Assembly: GCA_963170185.1 (NCBI GenBank)
Contig: CAUJGS010000041.1
Span: 8,262 to 72,261, forward strand
DNA length: 64,000 bases
Source: Bdellovibrionota bacterium
GTDB lineage: Bacteria > Bdellovibrionota > Bdellovibrionia > Bdellovibrionales > JAMPXM01
Direction of reading: 5' to 3'
In this document: positions 10,939 to 64,000 of the stretch, piece after piece
Position numbering within the stretch: position 1 is the first letter of the stretch
Layout: every line of letters starts with the position of its first letter
Made by a program: the position numbers and the translations under genes
Notes under the pieces: model-generated
The model's database searches: none
Seen by the model: only the letters and a program-made list of their open reading frames with translations
Told to the model about the DNA's origin: nothing

Positions 10939-12005
10939 TTCGAGCTAGGCTTTGCCGGAGCGTTGGCGACCGATGCGAAGAAATGCATGAGCAGGATCTG
11001 AACGTTGGTTGTCTCGCCTTCGTCGTTGTCGACGATTTCCGCGACATCGCGATGGAATTTTTCGACGAGTTCCAAAACCTTACCGGAAGCCTCTTTTGAC
11101 ATCGGCCGTACGCGGACCGAGGAAACACTCGGGTTGATCCAGTCTTGTGCGGGGGCGCCAGATGGTACAGTCAAGTAGCGTTCGGCGGTGAGGCCGGTAG
11201 AATATCGCGTAAGACCTTTCAGTCTCGTGTTGGCGAGACTTCCAAAGGAAAAACAATCGCCCTGACTTGTGTATCTCGTTCCGTCGAACTCGACACAGCC
11301 GAGTTCGAGAAGGGCTTTCAGCGTGGTGCGTGCTTCTTGCGTTGAGCAAGTCGCGTGTCTGGCGACGAAGTCGTCGTCATGCTTTTTAAGCGCTTTGTAA
11401 ACATCGAGTTCGATCGCCGCTTTGACAAACACCGCAAGGGGATTGGCCGCAACGAGGTCGATACATTGCTGATGCCAGGCATAGAAGGACTGAACTTCCG
11501 GAAGCAGCAAGGGGTCGACAAACCCCTCGAGCCACCCCATCAAGAGCGAGGGTTTTGAAGCGATAAGGCGCTGAACATCGGCGAGCATCACGTGTGACTC
11601 GCCGGCTTTCAGGCGACGAATGGTTCGGGGCGAACTGGAAAGTGCGCGTTGGATGAAGCGGTGATCGGTCAAAAAGTAGTTGATGACAGCTTTGGAGTTG
11701 AACTCGCCGACGAATGACCAAAAGATGCTGCGAAAATGTTTTTCGATCGCATGGCCTTCAAGTGTTGCGAGCTTGACGAAGTCGTCCCAAGAAATATGCG
11801 TCGATCCACTTTCCCATTTTCCGACCTGGTTGAACGAATATCCGAGCTTCTGACTTAAGTCGCGCTGAGTGCTGTCGCCGCGCATGGCGCGCACGATTTC
11901 ACGGGCGAGAGTGTCGTGATCGATCTTGGTCACCGGGCGTGGGCTATTAGGTGAGCGAAGGGGCGTTCCCGACTCAGGTGTGTTGGATGGTGGTTGAAGC
12001 TCCAT
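10935..12005 (-). CDS. HTH (XRE-like) protein, TIGR02147/DUF4423-like
   Basis: HTH segment STQRDLSQKLGYSFNQVGKWESGSTHISW, followed by a ~250-aa C-terminal domain. Architecture matches the TIGR02147 family. Confidence 0.6.
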   Translation of the reverse strand: MELQPPSNTPESGTPLRSPNSPRPVTKIDHDTLAREIVRAMRGDSTQRDLSQKLGYSFNQVGKWESGSTHISWDDFVKLATLEGHAIEKHFRSIFWSFVGEFNSKAVINYFLTDHRFIQRALSSSPRTIRRLKAGESHVMLADVQRLIASKPSLLMGWLEGFVDPLLLPEVQSFYAWHQQCIDLVAANPLAVFVKAAIELDVYKALKKHDDDFVARHATCSTQEARTTLKALLELGCVEFDGTRYTSQGDCFSFGSLANTRLKGLTRYSTGLTAERYLTVPSGAPAQDWINPSVSSVRVRPMSKEASGKVLELVEKFHRDVAEIVDNDEGETTNVQILLMHFFASVANAPAKPSSN

Positions 12006-12097
12006 ACGTCCCCTTTTTGTTTCCGGTTTTGGAGATCGGCGGACAAATCCGGAAAGTTCGGTCGTTTTCCTTACGACAAGGTCGAAGACTTAGCGGA

Positions 12098-13240
12098 ATG
12101 ATGAATTCAACTCAAATTCCAAAGTCTCAGTCGCTTGAAATCGAAATGGCAGCCATCTGGGCGCGTCAGGCTGCACGAGCCGCGTCGGGCGGTAACGCTC
12201 AGCCATGGGTCGTGAAGATAGAGCGTTTGTCTGACAATCGCCTTTTGTTTCGCTTAGGAATAGACTCTCGCTACTCTTGTCGGCCTTCGCCAATGGATGT
12301 CGATGGCAAGGCGGCGCTGATGGCGCTGGGGTGTTATGCGGTTTATGTCGAAGCTTTTGCGGCACTTGCCGGTTTCGAAGTTCAAAGTCGGTCTTTGGCG
12401 GCGGGGGAAACCGCGTGGGAGACAGAGGTCTCTCTGGTGTTTCGTCCGGTTGTTGGTGCGCGCAAGACGAAGTATTCCGAACAAGCGTTGCAGCAGCGTT
12501 GGACCGACCGTCGGGTTTATGAGACGGCGCCCTGTCCTCCTGATTTGCAGCGACGCATGCAAGATGTTTTAAAAGACTACGGCGGTATCCGCGCGACTTC
12601 GGTTCGCTCACGTATTGAGGCCGCAATCGGACCGTTAAGAAAACTCGAAGCCTTGCGCTGGAAAAACAAAAAATTTCGCGACTCGCTTTTTGAGGAGATC
12701 GACTTTTCCAGCGGCAAGGACGCTGGGGCGAGTAGGAAAATTCCCGCCTCACAACTGGGGGTTGAGGGGTTTGATCTTTTATTTTTGCGCTTGATGCACG
12801 GGTATCCCGCTTTGCGCACGATTTTAAGTATGGGTGGGTCGGAGATCGTCGCAAGAAAAACAGTGCCTCGCTTGCTTCGAGCTTCGTCGGGGGTTTGGTT
12901 TCTTCAGGCCGAAGTGAAATCAAACGCGGCCGTGTTTGATTTGGGAAGGTGCTTTCAGGAGCTATGGCTTGTCGTGAACGATTACGGCTATTCCTTTCAG
13001 CCCATAGGACTGCCTTTGGTGGCACTTTCTTATTGGAGCGGCGACAGTTGCGGGATCGGTCAATCGCCCGCGCAGACCGGTGTCGTGCGGGAGGTAACAG
13101 GGGTGCTTCGGGAGAAATTCGACTTAGACTTAAAAGAACTTGTTCTGGGCTTTCGCTTTGGCGCGACGAAAATCTCGCAAAGTGTTTCGTCAAGACTGAG
13201 CCCGCGCGCGGAACCGCAAATCGAAAGCAGCAAAACCTGA
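12098..13240 (+). CDS. tandem nitroreductase-like (Acg-family-like) FMN-binding protein
   Basis: Start at ATGATG 12098. Motif AARAASGGNAQPWVV resembles the nitroreductase SxxNxQPW signature. The ~380-aa length fits a two-lobed Acg-type protein. Confidence 0.6.
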   Translation: MMNSTQIPKSQSLEIEMAAIWARQAARAASGGNAQPWVVKIERLSDNRLLFRLGIDSRYSCRPSPMDVDGKAALMALGCYAVYVEAFAALAGFEVQSRSLAAGETAWETEVSLVFRPVVGARKTKYSEQALQQRWTDRRVYETAPCPPDLQRRMQDVLKDYGGIRATSVRSRIEAAIGPLRKLEALRWKNKKFRDSLFEEIDFSSGKDAGASRKIPASQLGVEGFDLLFLRLMHGYPALRTILSMGGSEIVARKTVPRLLRASSGVWFLQAEVKSNAAVFDLGRCFQELWLVVNDYGYSFQPIGLPLVALSYWSGDSCGIGQSPAQTGVVREVTGVLREKFDLDLKELVLGFRFGATKISQSVSSRLSPRAEPQIESSKT

Positions 13241-13380
13241 AGGACACAGCGACATATCCCGAATCTTTCGATGCCCCTGCATCGAAAGCAGCGAAGTCCG
13301 AAGGACGCAGCGACATATTCCAATCTTTCGATGCCCCTGCATCGAAAGCAGCGAAGTCCGAAGGACGCAGCGACATATTA
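13221..13380 (-). repeat. 2.7 tandem copies of a 60-bp two-hairpin element (family locus A)
   Basis: 13261-13320 and 13321-13380 differ at 2 positions; 13221-13260 is a degenerate partial copy. Each unit holds a perfect 10-bp stem (CTTTCGATGC/GCATCGAAAG, 4-nt loop) plus a small GTCC/GGAC hairpin. Confidence 0.95.
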
Positions 13381-14613
13381 GTTTCTGGCGTAGCCGTCGA
13401 AGTGAATGGGCCACGCGATCATGTCGCGTAGGGCGAATACGGTTCGAAAGTACGGAAGAACCGGAAGTGGCCAGGTGGCGCTTGGGTCGACCGCTTCGTA
13501 TGCGGAGCCGCCAAGAAACGAGGGCTCGTAGAGCGCGGAAAACACCTTGAGACGGCACTCTTTGAGCGCGCGAGCGATGATCTTGTCGAGTTCCAGATAC
13601 TGCGAGCGATACGTGCGTTCAAACGGCCAGCGTCCAGTGAGCTGGTCGCGCATGGAGAGTTCATTGGGCAGGCGATAATTGATCGCCGCGCAAAGGCCCG
13701 ACGGAAGCTTTTCGTCGCCAAAGCTTTTTAGTAGGCGTTCTTCGAGATTTAAGATGCTTAGGTAGCTCGAGCTTGCCAGCCAAGTCCGTCGGGCCCGACG
13801 TATGAGATTGGTCGGAAGCGGCTGCCATTTGGACTCTTGCAACCATCCGCGATCGACGTATTCACGATACGCGACACGCTCAAGATCAAGGATCGCAAGC
13901 CCGGTCAACAAGAGTGGCATGTACTCGGTGGTCAATAGTAGGCTTGCGAGCTTTCGTGTTTCGTGAAGAGCCTCTAGCGGTTGACCATCGAGAGTTCCTC
14001 TTAAGAGTCGAACCTTGGCGGCCGAGATGAGATCCAAAGTGTCTGGCGAGGGTATGAAATTGTAGGGAACGAACTGTCGTTTTTTTCCGAGCGCCTCCAA
14101 TGGAGACGCGGTTTCAATGTCCCAGATTTCGAATCCGCCGAGCTCCGAGAAGACGGCTGTTTCCCCTTTGAGGCGTCCACTTTCTAAAAAGCTTCGTCCT
14201 TTGATCCAGTCGTCTTGATAGCGCAAAAGAAATTCGCGCGACTCTGGCGGCACCAAAGGGGTTTTGCGGCCAAAGCTTGCTTGGTCGGCCGGTGCCGCTG
14301 GTGACCAGTAGAGTTTCGCATTGAGAACGGGACCTGCATTTTTTCCGGTTTTGGGCATCAGAGCCCGAAGCGGTTCGGCGGCGGGTGCGCTGTTTAAAAA
14401 CTCAAGATCGGCGCTGAAGGTGTCGTAGTGGCGCGCGTAGATCGCCTCGGTCTCATGAAGTTTCGTGGCGATGTTGCCGCGAAGAAGAAGCTCGACCGAG
14501 AGAATGTAGAGAAAAAAGAGCGCAATAAAGGACGGCGCTCCAAGAAGGAGCGCATGTCGAAGAGAGATTAGGCTGTTTGGGCTCGGAGCCACGTTCTCAC
14601 GTACGTCTTCCAC
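13378..14613 (-). CDS. hypothetical membrane-anchored protein
   Basis: 411-aa ORF with an N-terminal hydrophobic helix (LLLGAPSFIALFFLYILSVELLL). No domain recognised. Its 5' end overlaps the desaturase 3' end by 46 nt, so the true start may lie further downstream. Confidence 0.6.
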   Translation of the reverse strand: MEDVRENVAPSPNSLISLRHALLLGAPSFIALFFLYILSVELLLRGNIATKLHETEAIYARHYDTFSADLEFLNSAPAAEPLRALMPKTGKNAGPVLNAKLYWSPAAPADQASFGRKTPLVPPESREFLLRYQDDWIKGRSFLESGRLKGETAVFSELGGFEIWDIETASPLEALGKKRQFVPYNFIPSPDTLDLISAAKVRLLRGTLDGQPLEALHETRKLASLLLTTEYMPLLLTGLAILDLERVAYREYVDRGWLQESKWQPLPTNLIRRARRTWLASSSYLSILNLEERLLKSFGDEKLPSGLCAAINYRLPNELSMRDQLTGRWPFERTYRSQYLELDKIIARALKECRLKVFSALYEPSFLGGSAYEAVDPSATWPLPVLPYFRTVFALRDMIAWPIHFDGYARN

Positions 14614-39301: not shown

Positions 39302-40126
39302 ATGGGATTGTCGCGTTGGAGTTTCTTGAGTTCGCTTTCTGTCGTCGTCGTGTTTGGCGCGATGGAGTATGGACAAGCGGCGATTGACCGCAAGTCGGAA
39401 TGGATCACGCCGAAGGCTTCGGAGAAAAACGCAGGCAAAGATGCGGTGAAGCCAGTGGCGGGCGTGAAGCCCGGTAAGTCGGTTTCGATTCAGCAAACGA
39501 TGATTGCTTTGGAGCTTCCGTTTGAAAATCGCATCGCGGCTTTGCGGGCGCAGGGGCCTCAGGGCTACAAGAATCTTCGAGATATCATGTTTGGTCGCGA
39601 CAGCAAGATCGATTCGCGCTGGCGGGCGACGATGGCGCTTGGACGCATCGGTGGACGTTTTAGTCTTCCGGAGCTTGAGCGCGCCTCGAAGGCCAGTGTT
39701 TGGGAGCTTCGCAGTGCTGCTTTGATCGCTGTTTCAAGAATCGATCGCGCGACGGCGTCGAAATGGTCGCGTCGCTTGTTGCAAGACAAGGCTCTCTTGG
39801 TGCGATTGACGGCTGTTGAAACTCTAGAGACGGTGGGAGATCGCACGGCGATTCCCGAGCTCTGGGCGCAGCTCGATAGCCGGCAAAACTTCAAAGGTAG
39901 TCGAAGTCTCTTCATTCGTCGTCGGATCGTGGAGGCTTTGACGAAGCTCGAGTCTCCGACAGCCACGGCTCGGTTTGCTCGACTTTTAGAAGAAGAAGAT
40001 CCGCAGATTCATCGTTCTGCGATTTTGGCTCTTGAGAAACTAACAGGGCAAACCATGGGAAAACCAAGCGACCCGCTTTCGCGTCGCCGAGCTCTGTGGC
40101 AGCAGTGGCAGTCGACTCAAGGCTGA
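39302..40126 (+). CDS. HEAT-repeat protein
   Basis: Start at ATG 39302, 1 nt after the upstream stop, with a signal-like N-terminus. Repeated WRATMALGRIG / VWELRSAALIAVSRI / VRLTAVETLETVGD / RSAILALEKL helices. Confidence 0.7.
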   Translation: MGLSRWSFLSSLSVVVVFGAMEYGQAAIDRKSEWITPKASEKNAGKDAVKPVAGVKPGKSVSIQQTMIALELPFENRIAALRAQGPQGYKNLRDIMFGRDSKIDSRWRATMALGRIGGRFSLPELERASKASVWELRSAALIAVSRIDRATASKWSRRLLQDKALLVRLTAVETLETVGDRTAIPELWAQLDSRQNFKGSRSLFIRRRIVEALTKLESPTATARFARLLEEEDPQIHRSAILALEKLTGQTMGKPSDPLSRRRALWQQWQSTQG

Positions 40127-40638
40127 TTCTTCTTGTTCGCTTTGTCGTTGGCTTTTGCGATGGCGCGTGCGAGTTGAAGTTCGCGCCCGATTCGATAGAG
40201 AATGACCTGCTCCTCTAAACCGTCGCTTTTTTGTGTGACGGGTTCCGAGAAAAAGTCCCTTAAAATTTCAGCGCGCTTGGTGATCTGCACTTTGATGGCG
40301 GGTTTGTCTTCCGAGCGTCCGCGGACGAGACGCACGAGAAGTCGATAGCGATACCCTGGTGAGAGCGGCCCTGGTTCGAGAGGCGAACGAAACCGCGCTT
40401 CACCTTTGATGAAGTCCGTTTCGAAAATTCCGGCTTCGGTATTATCCACCTTTTGTGGGTAGCGAATCATGGACTGCTTGAGGGCGATCTCGACATCTTC
40501 GTAGTTGGCATAGAAGACCCGGCTATAAGGACCGCTCGAATTTTTGCGCTCTTCAAGACGCTGAGTCGCCGTCGTGCAAGCCGACAACGACAACAACAGC
40601 GATATGGCTAAGAAAGAAATATTGCCGCGCAACTGCAC
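40117..40638 (-). CDS. lipoprotein, function unknown
   Basis: GTG at 40638 gives M-QLRGNISFLAISLLLSLSAC (lipobox). In-frame sequence upstream overlaps the preceding gene. The start codon lies inside a repeat-family hairpin. Confidence 0.6.
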   Translation of the reverse strand: MQLRGNISFLAISLLLSLSACTTATQRLEERKNSSGPYSRVFYANYEDVEIALKQSMIRYPQKVDNTEAGIFETDFIKGEARFRSPLEPGPLSPGYRYRLLVRLVRGRSEDKPAIKVQITKRAEILRDFFSEPVTQKSDGLEEQVILYRIGRELQLARAIAKANDKANKKNQP

Positions 40639-40675
40639 GGCAAGCAGTACCGACCGGAGGTCGGTACGCCACCTA
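40621..40675 (-). repeat. two-hairpin repeat family, locus C
   Basis: Minus strand reads TAG-GTGGCG-TACCGACC TCC GGTCGGTA-CTGC-TTGCCGTGC AGTT GCGCGGCAA-TATTT. From CTGCT to ATTT it matches locus D at 27 of 31 positions. Confidence 0.8.
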
Positions 40676-42202
40676 TAGATCAACGGCGCTTTTTGAGACG
40701 TGCGAGAGTCCGTCGATAATGCTTGGGCTGAGACTGACGTTGGTTCCTTGAGTAGCAGCACCGAACAAAACCTCCCAGCGATGCGAGCCGGAGATCGCGC
40801 TTCCCATTTCAGGAAGTTCCATCGAAGCACTCCAGCCAGTCGCATAAACGTCCCAAACCGGTGACTTGCGGTCGATTTGCATCGAGCCCGAGGTCACACG
40901 ATCGATCTTGTTCAGCGTCGCATACGTCGCAGCAGGTGTCACGGAAGCAACCGACGACTTCGGCGGATTAAGGCCGAGAGTCGAGCCGCGCGCCGTTGGG
41001 GCTTTTGCGATATCGAGGAATTCAAACTTCGTCGTCCCCGTGTTGGGAGAAATCACGACCGACATAGCGTCAGCGCCCGCACCTGAGCTTGGTGCGTTGG
41101 TGTCGCGAAGTGCGCCGACGAGGTAGCCAGGAACGCCTTTTGGCGAAACGAGGCGACGTGTTTCCGAAGGTCCAAGTTTTTTGACGTCGGTTGGATACAG
41201 AAGCCCACCGTTTTCTGCGACGGAAACTGCGAGCATCGTTTGCGAGCTAGCAAAACGAGGTGCCGTCACGTCGACCTTTGCATCAAATACGGTGTCAGTG
41301 ATCGAGAGATCTTGGTTGGTAGACGGGCTAGAAAGCGCAATGTCTTTGATCGTGGCACTTTTAAATTCGAAGTAGTTTAAGATGTCGAAGAACGACTTTC
41401 CGGCGCGAAGATCGTCGACGACTTCTTCAAATGGGAAGCGCGCGTGAGCCGCGACCATTTTCCAAGTGCGTGGTTCTGGCAAATAGCTGCGGAACACGGG
41501 CTTGTCGAGCGTGATCGTGAAGAAGTAGCGCTCTTGCTGTTTAGGCAAGGAGACGTTGCTTGGAATATTGATCGACTGCCCCATGATCGTGATGGTGTCG
41601 ACTTCAGGGCTCACGAGATCTGTTACTTGCAACGATGCCAGTTGATCTTTGCGCAAAGCCGGGAAGATGACGCCGACGTCGACCCAGCCGTCTTGCTTGA
41701 GATTTTTAAAGCCAGTCGCTTTACCTTTAAGTTCCATGCGTTGCGCTTGGATCTTGCGGCGAACCTGAAGAGCCAGAGCTTGAGGTGCCTGATTCATCCA
41801 TGTTGCGCGAACGAAGCCAGCGACTTCGACAGTGATAGGCTGAGCGTCTGTCCATTGTGCGGGCAGGGCGATCTTGCCATCAGCGTCTGTTGTGAGCACG
41901 TTTCCAGGGAATGGGACATTTTCGCGTGCCCCGATCATGACCTTTGCTTGCGCCAAAGGCTGACCGCCTTGGTCAGCAACAAGCAGGTGGCCAGCGATAG
42001 GAGCCAAGGCTGTGATGCCCGCTTGGTTAGAGTCTGATGGGATCGAAACTTGTTCACGCGAGCAGGCTGCTGCGGAAAGCAGCAATGCCATGGGCAGAAC
42101 CACCCAGAACTTGGATGATAGGTTGGCTGACAGTTTGAATGACTGTTTGAATGACTGTGCAGTCTTGTTGGCCCGAGTCGTTTCCGTCTTTGGTCGAGTC
42201 AT
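40673..42202 (-). CDS. large lipoprotein, function unknown (carboxypeptidase-regulatory-like N-terminal fold possible)
   Basis: Lipobox LLLSAAAC. Segment GHLLVADQGGQPLAQAKVMIG...TTDADGKIALP resembles CarboxypepD_reg-type beta-sandwich domains. Confidence 0.6.
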   Translation of the reverse strand: MTRPKTETTRANKTAQSFKQSFKLSANLSSKFWVVLPMALLLSAAACSREQVSIPSDSNQAGITALAPIAGHLLVADQGGQPLAQAKVMIGARENVPFPGNVLTTDADGKIALPAQWTDAQPITVEVAGFVRATWMNQAPQALALQVRRKIQAQRMELKGKATGFKNLKQDGWVDVGVIFPALRKDQLASLQVTDLVSPEVDTITIMGQSINIPSNVSLPKQQERYFFTITLDKPVFRSYLPEPRTWKMVAAHARFPFEEVVDDLRAGKSFFDILNYFEFKSATIKDIALSSPSTNQDLSITDTVFDAKVDVTAPRFASSQTMLAVSVAENGGLLYPTDVKKLGPSETRRLVSPKGVPGYLVGALRDTNAPSSGAGADAMSVVISPNTGTTKFEFLDIAKAPTARGSTLGLNPPKSSVASVTPAATYATLNKIDRVTSGSMQIDRKSPVWDVYATGWSASMELPEMGSAISGSHRWEVLFGAATQGTNVSLSPSIIDGLSHVSKSAVDL

Positions 42203-42311: not shown

Positions 42312-42752
42312 TCATCGCACTGCGTGTGCGCGTAGGGGCGGTAGAGAAAGAGATCTCAGGGCGGCGATCCGCTCGTCGGTCATGTGGAGGCGGCACTGCT
42401 GAGTGGCCGGGTTGAGCCGGTTTTCGTAGTCCCGTAGCTCGAGGCCAGCGAGCTCGCATTGAGCATCCCGATAATCACGCCACTTGGATTGCGCGTCTTT
42501 CAGCCGTGAAAGTGATGGATTTTTCGCTTCGCGGGTCAGGAGCGTTTTGAAGAGAACTGAGAGCTCGGTTTCGGCAATGGCGATTTGCACGCCAAGGCAT
42601 TCGGCAAGCTCACCGCTTGGCGCCTCGGCGCACGAGGCACGCTTATCGGCACCGACGGTTCCGCTTTCTGTCGAAGCATCGGCGGCGATAGAGCCCAGAA
42701 GAGTGGCAACAAGAGCGAGAGTGGTGACGATCAGACGGCGCGTTTTGGTCAT
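42312..42752 (-). CDS. DUF1311 / LprI-like (lysozyme-inhibitor family) secreted protein
   Basis: Signal peptide MTKTRRLIVTTLALVATLLGSIAADA. Family motif AQSKWRDYRDAQCEL. Confidence 0.7.
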   Translation of the reverse strand: MTKTRRLIVTTLALVATLLGSIAADASTESGTVGADKRASCAEAPSGELAECLGVQIAIAETELSVLFKTLLTREAKNPSLSRLKDAQSKWRDYRDAQCELAGLELRDYENRLNPATQQCRLHMTDERIAALRSLSLPPLRAHAVR

Positions 42753-42902
42753 ATGAGTGGCTTGCGCTCGCAAGAAGTCTTCCACATGAAGTCGCGTGAT
42801 CTCTGCGGCATAGCGCGGAGTTGGTGGTTGAGAGCCGAGAGGAATTTTCCGAAGTGTTTGATTTCTCGACAGCCAGGAGGGTGGCCTTGCCGGTTTTGGG
42901 CC

Positions 42903-42951: not shown

Positions 42952-43028
<77 letters not shown>

Positions 43029-54597: not shown

Positions 54598-54629
54598 TAA
54601 AAAAGAGCCGGTATTCACCGGCTCTTTTT
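54598..54629. terminator. bidirectional intrinsic terminator
   Basis: AAAAAAA-GAGCCGG-tattca-CCGGCTC-TTTTT, with A- and T-tracts on both sides. Confidence 0.85.
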
Positions 54630-54644
54630 CGTCGAGTGCTAGTA

Positions 54645-54733
54645 GAGGGTGCGGTTCGTAGCGACACCCCTCAAATCTCGCCGCGCCACTGCACGGCGAG
54701 CAGCTTAGGGCGAAGCCCTAAGCGACACCCTTA
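54645..54733 (-). repeat. two-hairpin repeat family, locus D (one full copy plus a partial second copy)
   Basis: Minus strand reads TAAGGGTGTCGCT-TAGGGC TTC GCCCTA-A-GCTG-CTCGCCGTGC AGTG GCGCGGCGAG-ATTTGA, then GGGGTGTCGCTACGAACCGCACCCTC. Confidence 0.85.
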
Positions 54734-55066
54734 GATCGCGCGACAGCCATCCATCCAGCAGCTGCGGCTTACTTGGTAGCAGCTACGAAGAGCCGCATCG
54801 CGAGCCTCGGGCATGTTGCGGCCTCGGCCGTAGAATGGTGCTCCACGCTGGTTAACAGCTTTGCACTGAACACCGCGATAGCCTGGACGGCTTGGGCGAC
54901 CTGGACGGTAGTACAGCGAATGTGAGTCAGCAGACTCTTGACCGCCGCTTGCGAGAATCGCCATCTCTTCGAAGCTAGATGTCGAGTGATCCATCGCCAT
55001 TGCTGGAAGAGCAAATCCTGACGAGATGAGAAGTGCCGAGCCCACCGAGAAAACCATACGACGCAT
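54731..55066 (-). CDS. small secreted Cys-containing protein (DUF4189-like?)
   Basis: SD AAGGGGG before ATG 55066. Signal peptide MRRMVFSVGSALLISSGFALPAMA. C-terminal ARDAALRSCYQVSRSCWMDGC. Confidence 0.6.
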   Translation of the reverse strand: MRRMVFSVGSALLISSGFALPAMAMDHSTSSFEEMAILASGGQESADSHSLYYRPGRPSRPGYRGVQCKAVNQRGAPFYGRGRNMPEARDAALRSCYQVSRSCWMDGCRAI

Positions 55067-55402
55067 ACGTGCCCCCTTAGTATGTGGTGAAGGTGCCTTG
55101 GCCTGTCTTGGTGTCAGACTGGCTATCGACACAGCGTGTTTTCGTACTCGAAAAGCGCATGCTAGGTCGAGGGGCAAGATCCGGACCATTTGAAAATGGA
55201 TTTTATTCGCCGTTTTTCTGGGGGATCGTGACACCGGTGGCAAGAAGTCCTGGTTTGAGTCGAATCTGTGCTGCAGCTCGTCTTGGACTGAGACGGACTG
55301 TCGAATGGCGCTCACAATCGGTTTCTCGGGCAAAAGCGGGGGTATCTTGGATTTCAGAAGAGAAACGTTCCGATGAGAACTAATTCGACGAGCGAGGTTT
55401 CG

Positions 55403-63195: not shown

Positions 63196-64000
63196 TTATT
63201 TGAGGCGGTCGCCGAAGTGGCTTAAAAAGCGGCGGTGAAGGTCTTTGTCGCCGTAAATGTCGGTTGAGTCGGAAAGTTCGTTCCTCGAGTAGCCGGAAGA
63301 TATGTCGTGAATCTTTACGGCTCCACTGGCCGAAACGGCGGAACCGGATTTGCTGACGGAGGCGGCATTGGTGAGATCGGCATGAATGTGAGTGGTGTGG
63401 ATGGAGGACGCATTGGTGGATACGGCATTGGTGGGATCGGCATGAATGGGAGTGGTATGCGTGAAGGAAGCATGTGCGAGAGTGGCGTGAATGCGCCAGG
63501 TGCGAAACGAAGCCGTGAATTTCGTCTCAGCGCTTTCAAGTTCTGAGGCGGTACTCGATCTTGTAGTTGAACCGGGAACAGAAACATTGTCGCCCACCGC
63601 GGGAACAATCTCGATTCGTTTTCTTGTTTGATCTAGCGGTTGATAGCGAAGCTGTTCGAAAATAAAGGGGCGCAAACGTGCTTCGCCCTCTGCTTCCAGC
63701 CAGTCGAGTTTTTCTTTTGCTATCGCGGATTCTTCGATGGAGTGGGGAGGGGGAAGAAGATCGATCCACCCGGCGCGGGCATCGGGAAACGAATCGGCCT
63801 CTGGAACATAAGGCTTGATGTCGTAAATCGGAGTGCCGTCTAAGAGATCGTGGTGCGAGATGCGAACCGAGCGACCTTCGATTCCCAAAAGCCGAACACA
63901 GCTTAAACCTAAGCCGTTTGGTCGATGTGGCGCACGTGTTGCGAAGACGCCTTTTAACGAACCGTCACCGCGCGGTGGCTTTGTTTGCGGAAGCCAAGAC
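63196..64000 (-). CDS. trmO: tRNA (t6A37) methyltransferase TrmO/TsaA (5' end outside window)
   Basis: The frame stays open to the window edge. FATRAPHRPNGLGLSCVRLLGIEGRSVRISHHDLLDGTPIYDIKPYVP is the TsaA-domain signature. The C-terminal domain has a repeat-bearing insertion. Confidence 0.85.
   Translation of the reverse strand, partial: SWLPQTKPPRGDGSLKGVFATRAPHRPNGLGLSCVRLLGIEGRSVRISHHDLLDGTPIYDIKPYVPEADSFPDARAGWIDLLPPPHSIEESAIAKEKLDWLEAEGEARLRPFIFEQLRYQPLDQTRKRIEIVPAVGDNVSVPGSTTRSSTASELESAETKFTASFRTWRIHATLAHASFTHTTPIHADPTNAVSTNASSIHTTHIHADLTNAASVSKSGSAVSASGAVKIHDISSGYSRNELSDSTDIYGDKDLHRRFLSHFGDRLK

Follow-up and report, generated by a model that had tools for sequence, protein, structure and literature searches.

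The 64-kb stretch of Bdellovibrionota DNA analysed here, which we refer to as the window, carries on its minus strand a short structured repeat, copy F, wedged between two co-directional genes (Table 1). The upstream gene encodes a putative lipoprotein and has a strong Shine-Dalgarno (SD) sequence, GGAGGGG, ahead of its ATG at 42202. Its C-terminus, ...SKSAVDL and the stop, is kept in relatives both with and without the repeat, indicating that the stop codon is native and that the element lies just 3' of it. The downstream gene also encodes a predicted lipoprotein: reading the sequence by eye, we identified a hydrophobic core, FLAISLLLSL, followed by the lipobox LSAC, which fits the consensus [LVI][ASTVI][GAS]C, with Arg residues upstream of the core from either of the two main candidate start codons. 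The lipobox Cys and the residues after it (TTATxxLE...) are conserved in 120 homologues, and the N-termini of these proteins diverge widely. A Pfam search returned nothing for this lipoprotein, which forms a conserved Bdellovibrionota protein family, and only a sub-threshold CarboxypepD_reg match for the upstream protein. Comparisons between the element-bearing lineages (the window with L001, L002 with L003, and L005) gave dN/dS values of 0.01-0.015 at dS above 1.4, from which we conclude that the lipoprotein gene is functional in all of them.

Read along the minus strand, the junction runs from the TAG of the upstream gene through a single g and the tag TGGCG into hairpin 1, then TGC, hairpin 2 and finally TATTTCTTTC. 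Hairpin 1 is G-TACCGACC-TCC-GGTCGGTA-C with nine perfect pairs, and hairpin 2 is TTGCCGTGC-AGTT-GCGCGGCAA with eight Watson-Crick pairs and one G-U. With both stems perfect or G-U paired, copy F counts as a full-length member of its family, and its beginning 1 nt past the TAG places it among the stop-adjacent copies (0-3 nt). A covariance model of 31 copies matched it over all 59 model positions (72.3 bits, E 2.8e-22), a score that is partly circular since copy F is itself one of the training copies. In a 111-nt RNA around copy F both hairpins are predicted to form (-39.1 kcal/mol, z = -3.05), and none of 200 shuffled sequences was equally stable. The first-pass annotation had described this minus-strand sequence, its two-hairpin anatomy and its kinship with a second copy at locus D, and these observations hold as stated: copy F matches locus D (54703..54673) at 27 of 31 positions, including a U-A/C-G compensatory pair, and the homologous GTG at locus D opens an ORF of 7 codons. 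Likewise, a GTG at 40638 does sit in the 5' arm of hairpin 2, with the element overlapping the lipoprotein coding frame.

Table 1. Features of the lipoprotein junction and further repeat copies in the 64-kb window.
Feature	Coordinates	Strand	Remarks
Upstream gene	40673..42202	-	509 aa, putative lipoprotein; stop TAG 40675..40673
In-frame TTG in gcc gTT Gat	40681..40683	-	8 nt before the TAG; start candidate at the ancestral position
Repeat copy F	40616..40674	-	about 59 nt, two hairpins, full copy; covariance-model match and 31-copy alignment
5' tag, unpaired	40667..40671	-	conserved TGKCG (TGGCG in copy F); alignment of copies
Hairpin 1	40647..40667	-	9-bp stem, TCC loop; stem sequence varies across the family
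Linker CTGC	40644..40647	-	invariant in the family (31-copy alignment)
Hairpin 2	40622..40643	-	9-bp stem, AGTT loop; pairing in alignment and fold
3' tail TATT	40618..40621	-	GATT in most copies of the family
GTG in 5' arm of hairpin 2	40636..40638	-	start chosen in the first-pass annotation and in one public gene call
Second in-frame TTG	40630..40632	-	across loop and 3' arm of hairpin 2, two codons downstream of the GTG; TCG in L002, L003 and L062
Lipobox L-S-A-C	40576..40587	-	Cys codon 40578..40576, mature protein after it
Lipoprotein frame	40117..40683	-	from the overlap TTG to the stop; 152-aa mature part under strong purifying selection
Copy A1	13320..13378	-	begins 2 nt past the TAA of gene 13378..14613
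Copy A2	13260..13318	-	tandem with A1, 60-nt period
Copy A3	13201..13258	-	decayed (14.8 bits); overlaps the 3' end of the convergent plus-strand ORF 11951..13240
Copy D	54672..54730	-	begins 3 nt past the TAA of gene 54731..55333

Four full copies of the repeat and one decayed copy lie in the window, all on the minus strand. At locus D, the stretch behind copy D (54600-54672, minus strand) contains the beginning of another unit, GGGGTGTCGCTACGAACCGC..., which breaks off, and after it a canonical terminator, AAAAAGAGCCGGTGAATACCGGCTCTTTTTTATTT (about 54625..54600), an order that places the copy in a 3' UTR. Locus A (13201-13379, minus strand) holds three units between convergent genes, in tandem at 60- and 61-nt spacing behind the TAA of the gene that precedes them. 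A 428-aa minus-strand ORF running through these three units (12090..13376, with its ATG in a TATGTCG tag) looks by its codon-position GC like a shadow ORF and was discarded, and the plus-strand ORF 11951..13240 is likely to be the real gene there. Pfam searches of the genes flanking loci A and D gave nothing useful.

To describe the family beyond the window, one genome per species was scanned with the pattern TGKCG-N19-CTGCT-N5-TGCAG-N2-GC-N6-AKA, which matched at 37 loci. Four Bdellovibrionales MAGs account for 25 of these, every one with both hairpins; the other 12 are single matches in unrelated organisms, have no hairpins and look like chance. The unit, of about 59 nt, consists of a TGTCG tag, hairpin 1, CTGC, hairpin 2 and GATT. 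In an ungapped alignment of 31 copies (alignment A2), the invariant parts are all unpaired, namely TGKCG, CTGC, the TGC, AG and GC flanking the loop of hairpin 2, and the A of the tail, and the stems are variable. Even so, every one of the 31 copies keeps hairpin 2 paired (100% of cells); double changes affect five of its pairs and seven of those in hairpin 1, 12 over both stems. The observed covariation was reached by none of 500 shuffles, and sliding the pairing partners by 1-3 columns lowered pairing from 90% to about 40%. This combination of covarying stems and failing controls shows that structure, and not sequence alone, is maintained in the family.

The copies are also positioned in a highly specific manner. 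A stop codon lies 0-3 nt upstream of TGKCG in 17 of the 28 copies that are first in their array, whereas random positions in this DNA give 11.7%. In 13 of the 28 that stop terminates an ORF of 100 aa or more, for which the random expectation is 0.5%. The copies are oriented like the ORF whose stop precedes them. This placement appears too precise for selection alone and suggests insertion next to TAR. Moreover, any given sense frame is free of stops in 28-29 of the 31 copies, and the antisense frames carry stops in 5-11 of 31. Units in tandem arrays mostly follow one another every 60-61 nt; a single array has a spacing of 69 nt. BLAST of all fetched loci against the window found the lipoprotein junction as the only shared site, so that the element boundaries given here are approximate. 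Many copies at L018, L019, L021, L032, L035 and L038 (JAXMMN01, CAKQVW01 and JAYSST01) lie less than 100 nt from where the contig stops. Short-read assemblies seem to break at the repeat, and true copy numbers are probably much above the exact-pattern counts of 15 and 9 per MAG.

None of the 4227 covariance models of Rfam matched the window at the gathering threshold apart from one tRNA elsewhere in it, and 40500..40800 gave no match even with the limit relaxed to an E of 1. A literature search on REP, MITE or intergenic repeats of Bdellovibrio found nothing relevant. Two other classes of repeat, an attC site and a CRISPR repeat, were rejected by inspection: the hairpins are two and separate, R'/R'' core sites are lacking, and the tandem units follow head-to-tail over short linkers with no unique spacers.

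The closest likeness is to REP/BIME elements, above all those of the CGTC-tagged super-family. They share with the present family short hairpins with 8-9 bp stems and 3-5 nt loops, a 5' tag that is conserved and stays unpaired, sub-families set apart by compensating changes in the stems, and dozens or more copies that are sometimes clustered and that lie less than 20 nt from the 3' end of an upstream ORF, between co-directional or convergent genes. By the usual definition of a REP (a short imperfect palindrome in many copies, mostly extragenic and near ORF 3' ends), the family qualifies, the 64-kb window alone containing 4-5 copies. GTAG- and CGTC-tagged REP super-families, the CGTC tag often being TGTC or else CCTC, were distinguished by Di Nocera et al. 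2013 (PMC3733652), who also reported REPs in the 5' ends of ORFs as well as stop codons supplied by or abutting REP ends or the tag. For 5'-end REPs, they considered that the true start may be downstream or that the insert may be translated, as with the Rickettsia palindromic elements (RPE). The unit described here differs in that it comprises two unlike hairpins head-to-tail, whereas head-to-tail dimers are called negligible in that study. Its tags, TGTCG before hairpin 1, which includes TGTC, and CTGC before hairpin 2, are neither GTAG nor CGTC itself, its tail is GATT and not the CCA of the CGTC type, and Bdellovibrionota is not among the phyla listed there (PMC3733652). On these sequence features we regard the family as REP-like and claim it for neither the GTAG nor the CGTC super-family.

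The RPEs and other small intragenic repeats offer a second comparison, being palindromic repeats that lie in frame in genes and are translated without loss of function; the same REP study refers to RPE-1 insertions at N-termini for which expression in vivo is reported (PMC3733652). In the present case, by contrast, the added residues would belong to a signal peptide that is cleaved off, and the mature protein would have none of them. RPEs are about 100-150 bp long, and thus longer than the unit here, to which they are unrelated in sequence. A third comparison concerns mechanism. IS200/IS605-type elements and their miniature derivatives are hairpin-ended and insert 3' of a short target with no target duplication. 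Like them, the present family has hairpins close to both of its ends and shows no visible duplication of the target site, and its copies always face one way relative to a short asymmetric target, here TAR. It differs in that its stems vary among copies more than expected for the ends of one transposase. We take this comparison as a mechanistic lead only.

The lipoprotein junction is instructive since its orthologues occur both with and without the element. The element is present in the window and in relatives of at least 91% protein identity. At L043, L044, L046, L047, L051, L053-L058, L060 and L061, in turn, the junction is empty and the signal-peptide DNA is unrelated; orthologues at 72% DNA identity or less have no element and ordinary N-termini. 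Many homologues begin M-I-[SFY]-[KN] or MSxxxxx-I-[SFY]-[KN], and the DNA of 15 distant loci reveals I-[SFY]-[KN] to be the +1-frame reading of the ...D-[LF]-stop that ends the upstream gene. In L047, L051, L053, L054, L056 and L058 the lipoprotein ATG is formed from cAT GTx, the His-Val codons of the upstream gene, giving a 29-nt overlap. L060 has no such ATG (CAC GTC), and its sole in-frame start is a TTG in gcc gTT Gat, with GGAG before it. The window shares with L060 both the CAC GTC and the TTG at the same position (40683..40681).

The distance from the upstream stop to the lipobox Cys is 1 mod 3 at 18 of the 18 orthologous junctions read, over a range of 34-217 nt (97, 190, 112, 121, 145, 118, 64, 64, 76, 34, 106, 34, 103, 49, 217 and 52 nt, together with 79 nt for L043 and 115 nt for L061, both read by hand). 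A frame that stays fixed over so variable a spacer indicates that the spacer is coding and that the gene starts at or beside the upstream stop codon. Within this one frame the start itself wanders at the junctions of L043, L044, L005, L061 and P0009, and its forms include, in distant relatives, an ATG from cAT GTx, and otherwise a GTG from aGT Gcc, a TTG from gTT Gat and, in L061, a TTG 1 nt past the stop; P0009 has an apparent ATG via a change at the Ser codon, as judged from its N-terminus only. The DNA of L061 was read to represent the lineage of P0005 and P0007, which are 84-86% relatives with ordinary ATG starts.

Among the relatives that carry the element, differences in length leave the frame intact. 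L001, at a dS of 0.04 from the window, has 93 extra in-frame nt, corresponding to a second unit plus half of a hairpin 2. The proximal GTG and TTG are missing from it (GCG CAG TTA), and its nearest start is 31 codons further upstream. On either side of this difference (L001 2328-2440 against window 40643-40616) stands a 21-nt direct repeat (GCAGTTGCGCGGCAAGATTTC and GCAGTTACGCGGCAAGATTTC). Recombination between half-hairpins may have produced the window form by deletion, with no gain by insertion required in L001. L005 has two units with no in-frame ATG, GTG or TTG inside them, and GCG at the position of the hairpin-2 GTG. Its other possible starts are a GTG in the overlap and an ATG 7 codons before the Cys, from which no signal peptide could be made. 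The start codons available in L001 and L005 mean that whole units must be translated in some strains. Upstream of the hairpin-2 GTG, L003 has 24 nt more than L002 and L063 has a 21-nt duplication, and protein calls such as P0138 and others include further in-frame variants. Each of the indels on the upstream side of the GTG preserves the reading frame, its length being a multiple of 3, which is needed only if the start lies further upstream, though they are few and each has a one-in-three chance of coincidence. The hairpin-2 GTG is kept in L062, which reads TCG at the position of TTG 40632.

We therefore considered two main positions at which translation of the lipoprotein might begin in the window. 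TTG 40683 lies 15 codons upstream of GTG 40638, within the final codons of the preceding gene. From this TTG the lipoprotein frame runs through the entire element without a stop, although an open frame across a stop-free element is weak evidence taken alone. A start there would give a 36-residue signal peptide with an unusually long n-region of 22 residues. TTG is a weak start codon, and only AAAAAG stands upstream of it in the window, at the place where L060 has GGAG. In the predicted fold the TTG falls outside both hairpins, and its distance of 8 nt from the upstream stop suits reinitiation. The arrangement resembles termination-reinitiation, in which translation of the second gene begins inside the end of the first, in a constant +1 frame relation and often without a strong SD of its own; judging from this geometry, the two genes are probably translationally coupled.

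We hypothesize that copy F is an in-frame element lodged in a cleaved n-region, with the start at the overlap TTG 40683 and GTG 40638 as an alternative, a reading that we consider somewhat probable on the strength of the sequence comparisons. The copy belongs to a REP-like repeat family of a small Bdellovibrionales clade, the stems of which are kept by compensatory changes and new members of which would arrive in sense orientation 0-3 nt behind stop codons. Ancestrally, the start of the lipoprotein would fall inside the end of the upstream gene, so that the genes overlap and are probably coupled in translation. A copy arriving behind the upstream stop would then be caught within the lipoprotein frame, after the start and ahead of the signal peptide's hydrophobic core. 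As the element is nearly free of stops and lies in frame, translation from TTG 40683 would read through both hairpins and lengthen the n-region by about 19 residues (YRWRTDLRSVLLAVQLRGNIS). Signal peptidase II would remove these residues, leaving the mature protein unchanged and the insertion tolerated; GTG 40638 could act as an alternative or secondary in-frame start, and not as a necessary one. The same mature protein would result from either start after cleavage, which is probably why the junction tolerates the element, and for this reason N-terminal proteomics of the mature protein cannot tell the start site.

The first-pass annotation had taken GTG 40638 as the only plausible start, which does not stand given the in-frame TTG 40683, where distant homologues start (L060 exactly), and the further TTG 40632. 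A less probable reading is that this GTG is the main start, with the element supplying the start and the first 6 codons (MQLRGN), hairpin 2 gating initiation and the openness of the frame upstream being incidental. From the GTG a 173-codon frame opens (MQLRGNISFLAISLLLSLSAC...) with a canonical, textbook lipoprotein signal peptide of 21 residues, and the codon is in frame in the window, L001, L002, L003 and L062. It is also the start used in the public gene call of P0128 (173 aa; NCBI and Logan), whose N-terminus is identical to that of the window protein; such calls range from 173 to 245 aa for near-identical lipoprotein genes. The GTG is buried, however, in a 9-bp stem behind a second 9-bp stem, and the earlier remark that it has no SD is correct for its immediate vicinity. 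Most of the credible starts in the window, by contrast, are preceded by SDs of the GGAG type. What that remark passed over is an AGGTGG overlapping the TAG, 30 nt upstream, which would be only about 9 nt distant if hairpin 1 folds. Such a split-SD geometry is known from phage T4 genes. This AGGTGG is not conserved, relatives reading AGGTGT, AAGTGG or AATTGT.

Conservation of the GTG is itself uninformative, as GTGCAG is a family-wide motif kept in copies that start nothing. When the [AG]TG of hairpin 2 was tested as a start donor elsewhere, it opened long ORFs at the lipoprotein junction only, plus an unverified 146-codon ORF in L042. Against initiation at the GTG, moreover, L005 has GCG there and no other start in its elements, and yet its gene is under selection; L001 would still need a whole extra unit to be translated; and the model makes no demand that upstream indels be in frame. 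The earlier suggestion that the gene recruited the element for its 5' end and for control of its translation is possible, but in view of L005, L001 and the multiple-of-3 indels it is not the better-supported reading. The orthologous junctions, once compared, include hairpin-less orthologues that start elsewhere, a result that goes largely against the first-pass account.

A bolder version, which we regard as unlikely, holds that the family is a mobile element not described before, one that seeks out stop codons and is made to do no harm when translated, in keeping with its stop-free sense frames and its usual 60-61-nt unit spacing, with the hairpin-2 GTG serving as a structure-gated internal start. 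If so, the element would be coding at the junctions of overlapping genes, unit gain and loss among strains would remodel the signal peptide, and the element would really donate a start codon and translational control to its host gene.

Less probable still is the view that hairpin 2 and the U-rich tail after it (UAUUUCUUUCUU) serve chiefly to attenuate transcription or end it as an intrinsic terminator, uncoupling the two genes and leaving the lipoprotein weakly expressed or silent here. Hairpin 2 with the TATTTCTTTC tail passes a loose terminator consensus scan, and the tail of copy F is more U-rich than those of other copies. Terminator-like matches are nevertheless not enriched over shuffles (7 against 4.2 +/- 2.1), the tails of other copies read GAUUKG and are not U-rich, and copy D has its own canonical terminator downstream. 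In addition, the downstream gene is under strong purifying selection, and no promoter-like site for it was found on the minus strand.

The proposal that the 5' end of the lipoprotein gene founded the repeat family, for which the one argument is that codons 1-6 of the GTG-started ORF are repeat sequence, is refuted by the 13 orthologous junctions, among them those at 72% identity or less, that have no element and unrelated signal-peptide DNA, by the dozens of copies behind many unrelated genes in several MAGs, and by the fact that the GTG opens a long ORF essentially only at the lipoprotein junction.

REP-like elements in ORF 5' ends are already in the literature, and the advance is in that respect incremental. 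A structured, covarying repeat family is nevertheless added to a phylum for which our literature search found none described, and its precise position at stop codons points to a targeted insertion mechanism that is identifiable in principle. The lipoprotein junction constitutes a natural experiment, with 0, 1 or 2 units per strain, always in frame, and a constrained mature protein; it shows the cleaved signal peptide to be a permissive landing site for such elements. Automatic start-codon calls are, by the same token, unreliable at junctions of this kind.

Two further loci may represent elements abutting or entering 5' ends. At L016 (1228-1300), an ATG (ATGAAGAACTTG...) lies 7 nt past the end of a unit, and at L042 (4714-5190) the 146-codon frame mentioned above opens from an ATG at the hairpin-2 position and runs through a second unit. 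Elsewhere in the window, imperfect direct repeats with 15- and 45-nt spacing (GGCATTGGTG.GATCGGCATGAATG...) occur at 63358-63518, in the region of the minus-strand ORF 63196..63888, and are unrelated to the hairpin family. The single Rfam match is a tRNA gene at 42952-43025 on the plus strand (RF00005, 67 bits), just upstream of an LprI-like gene (42312..42785).
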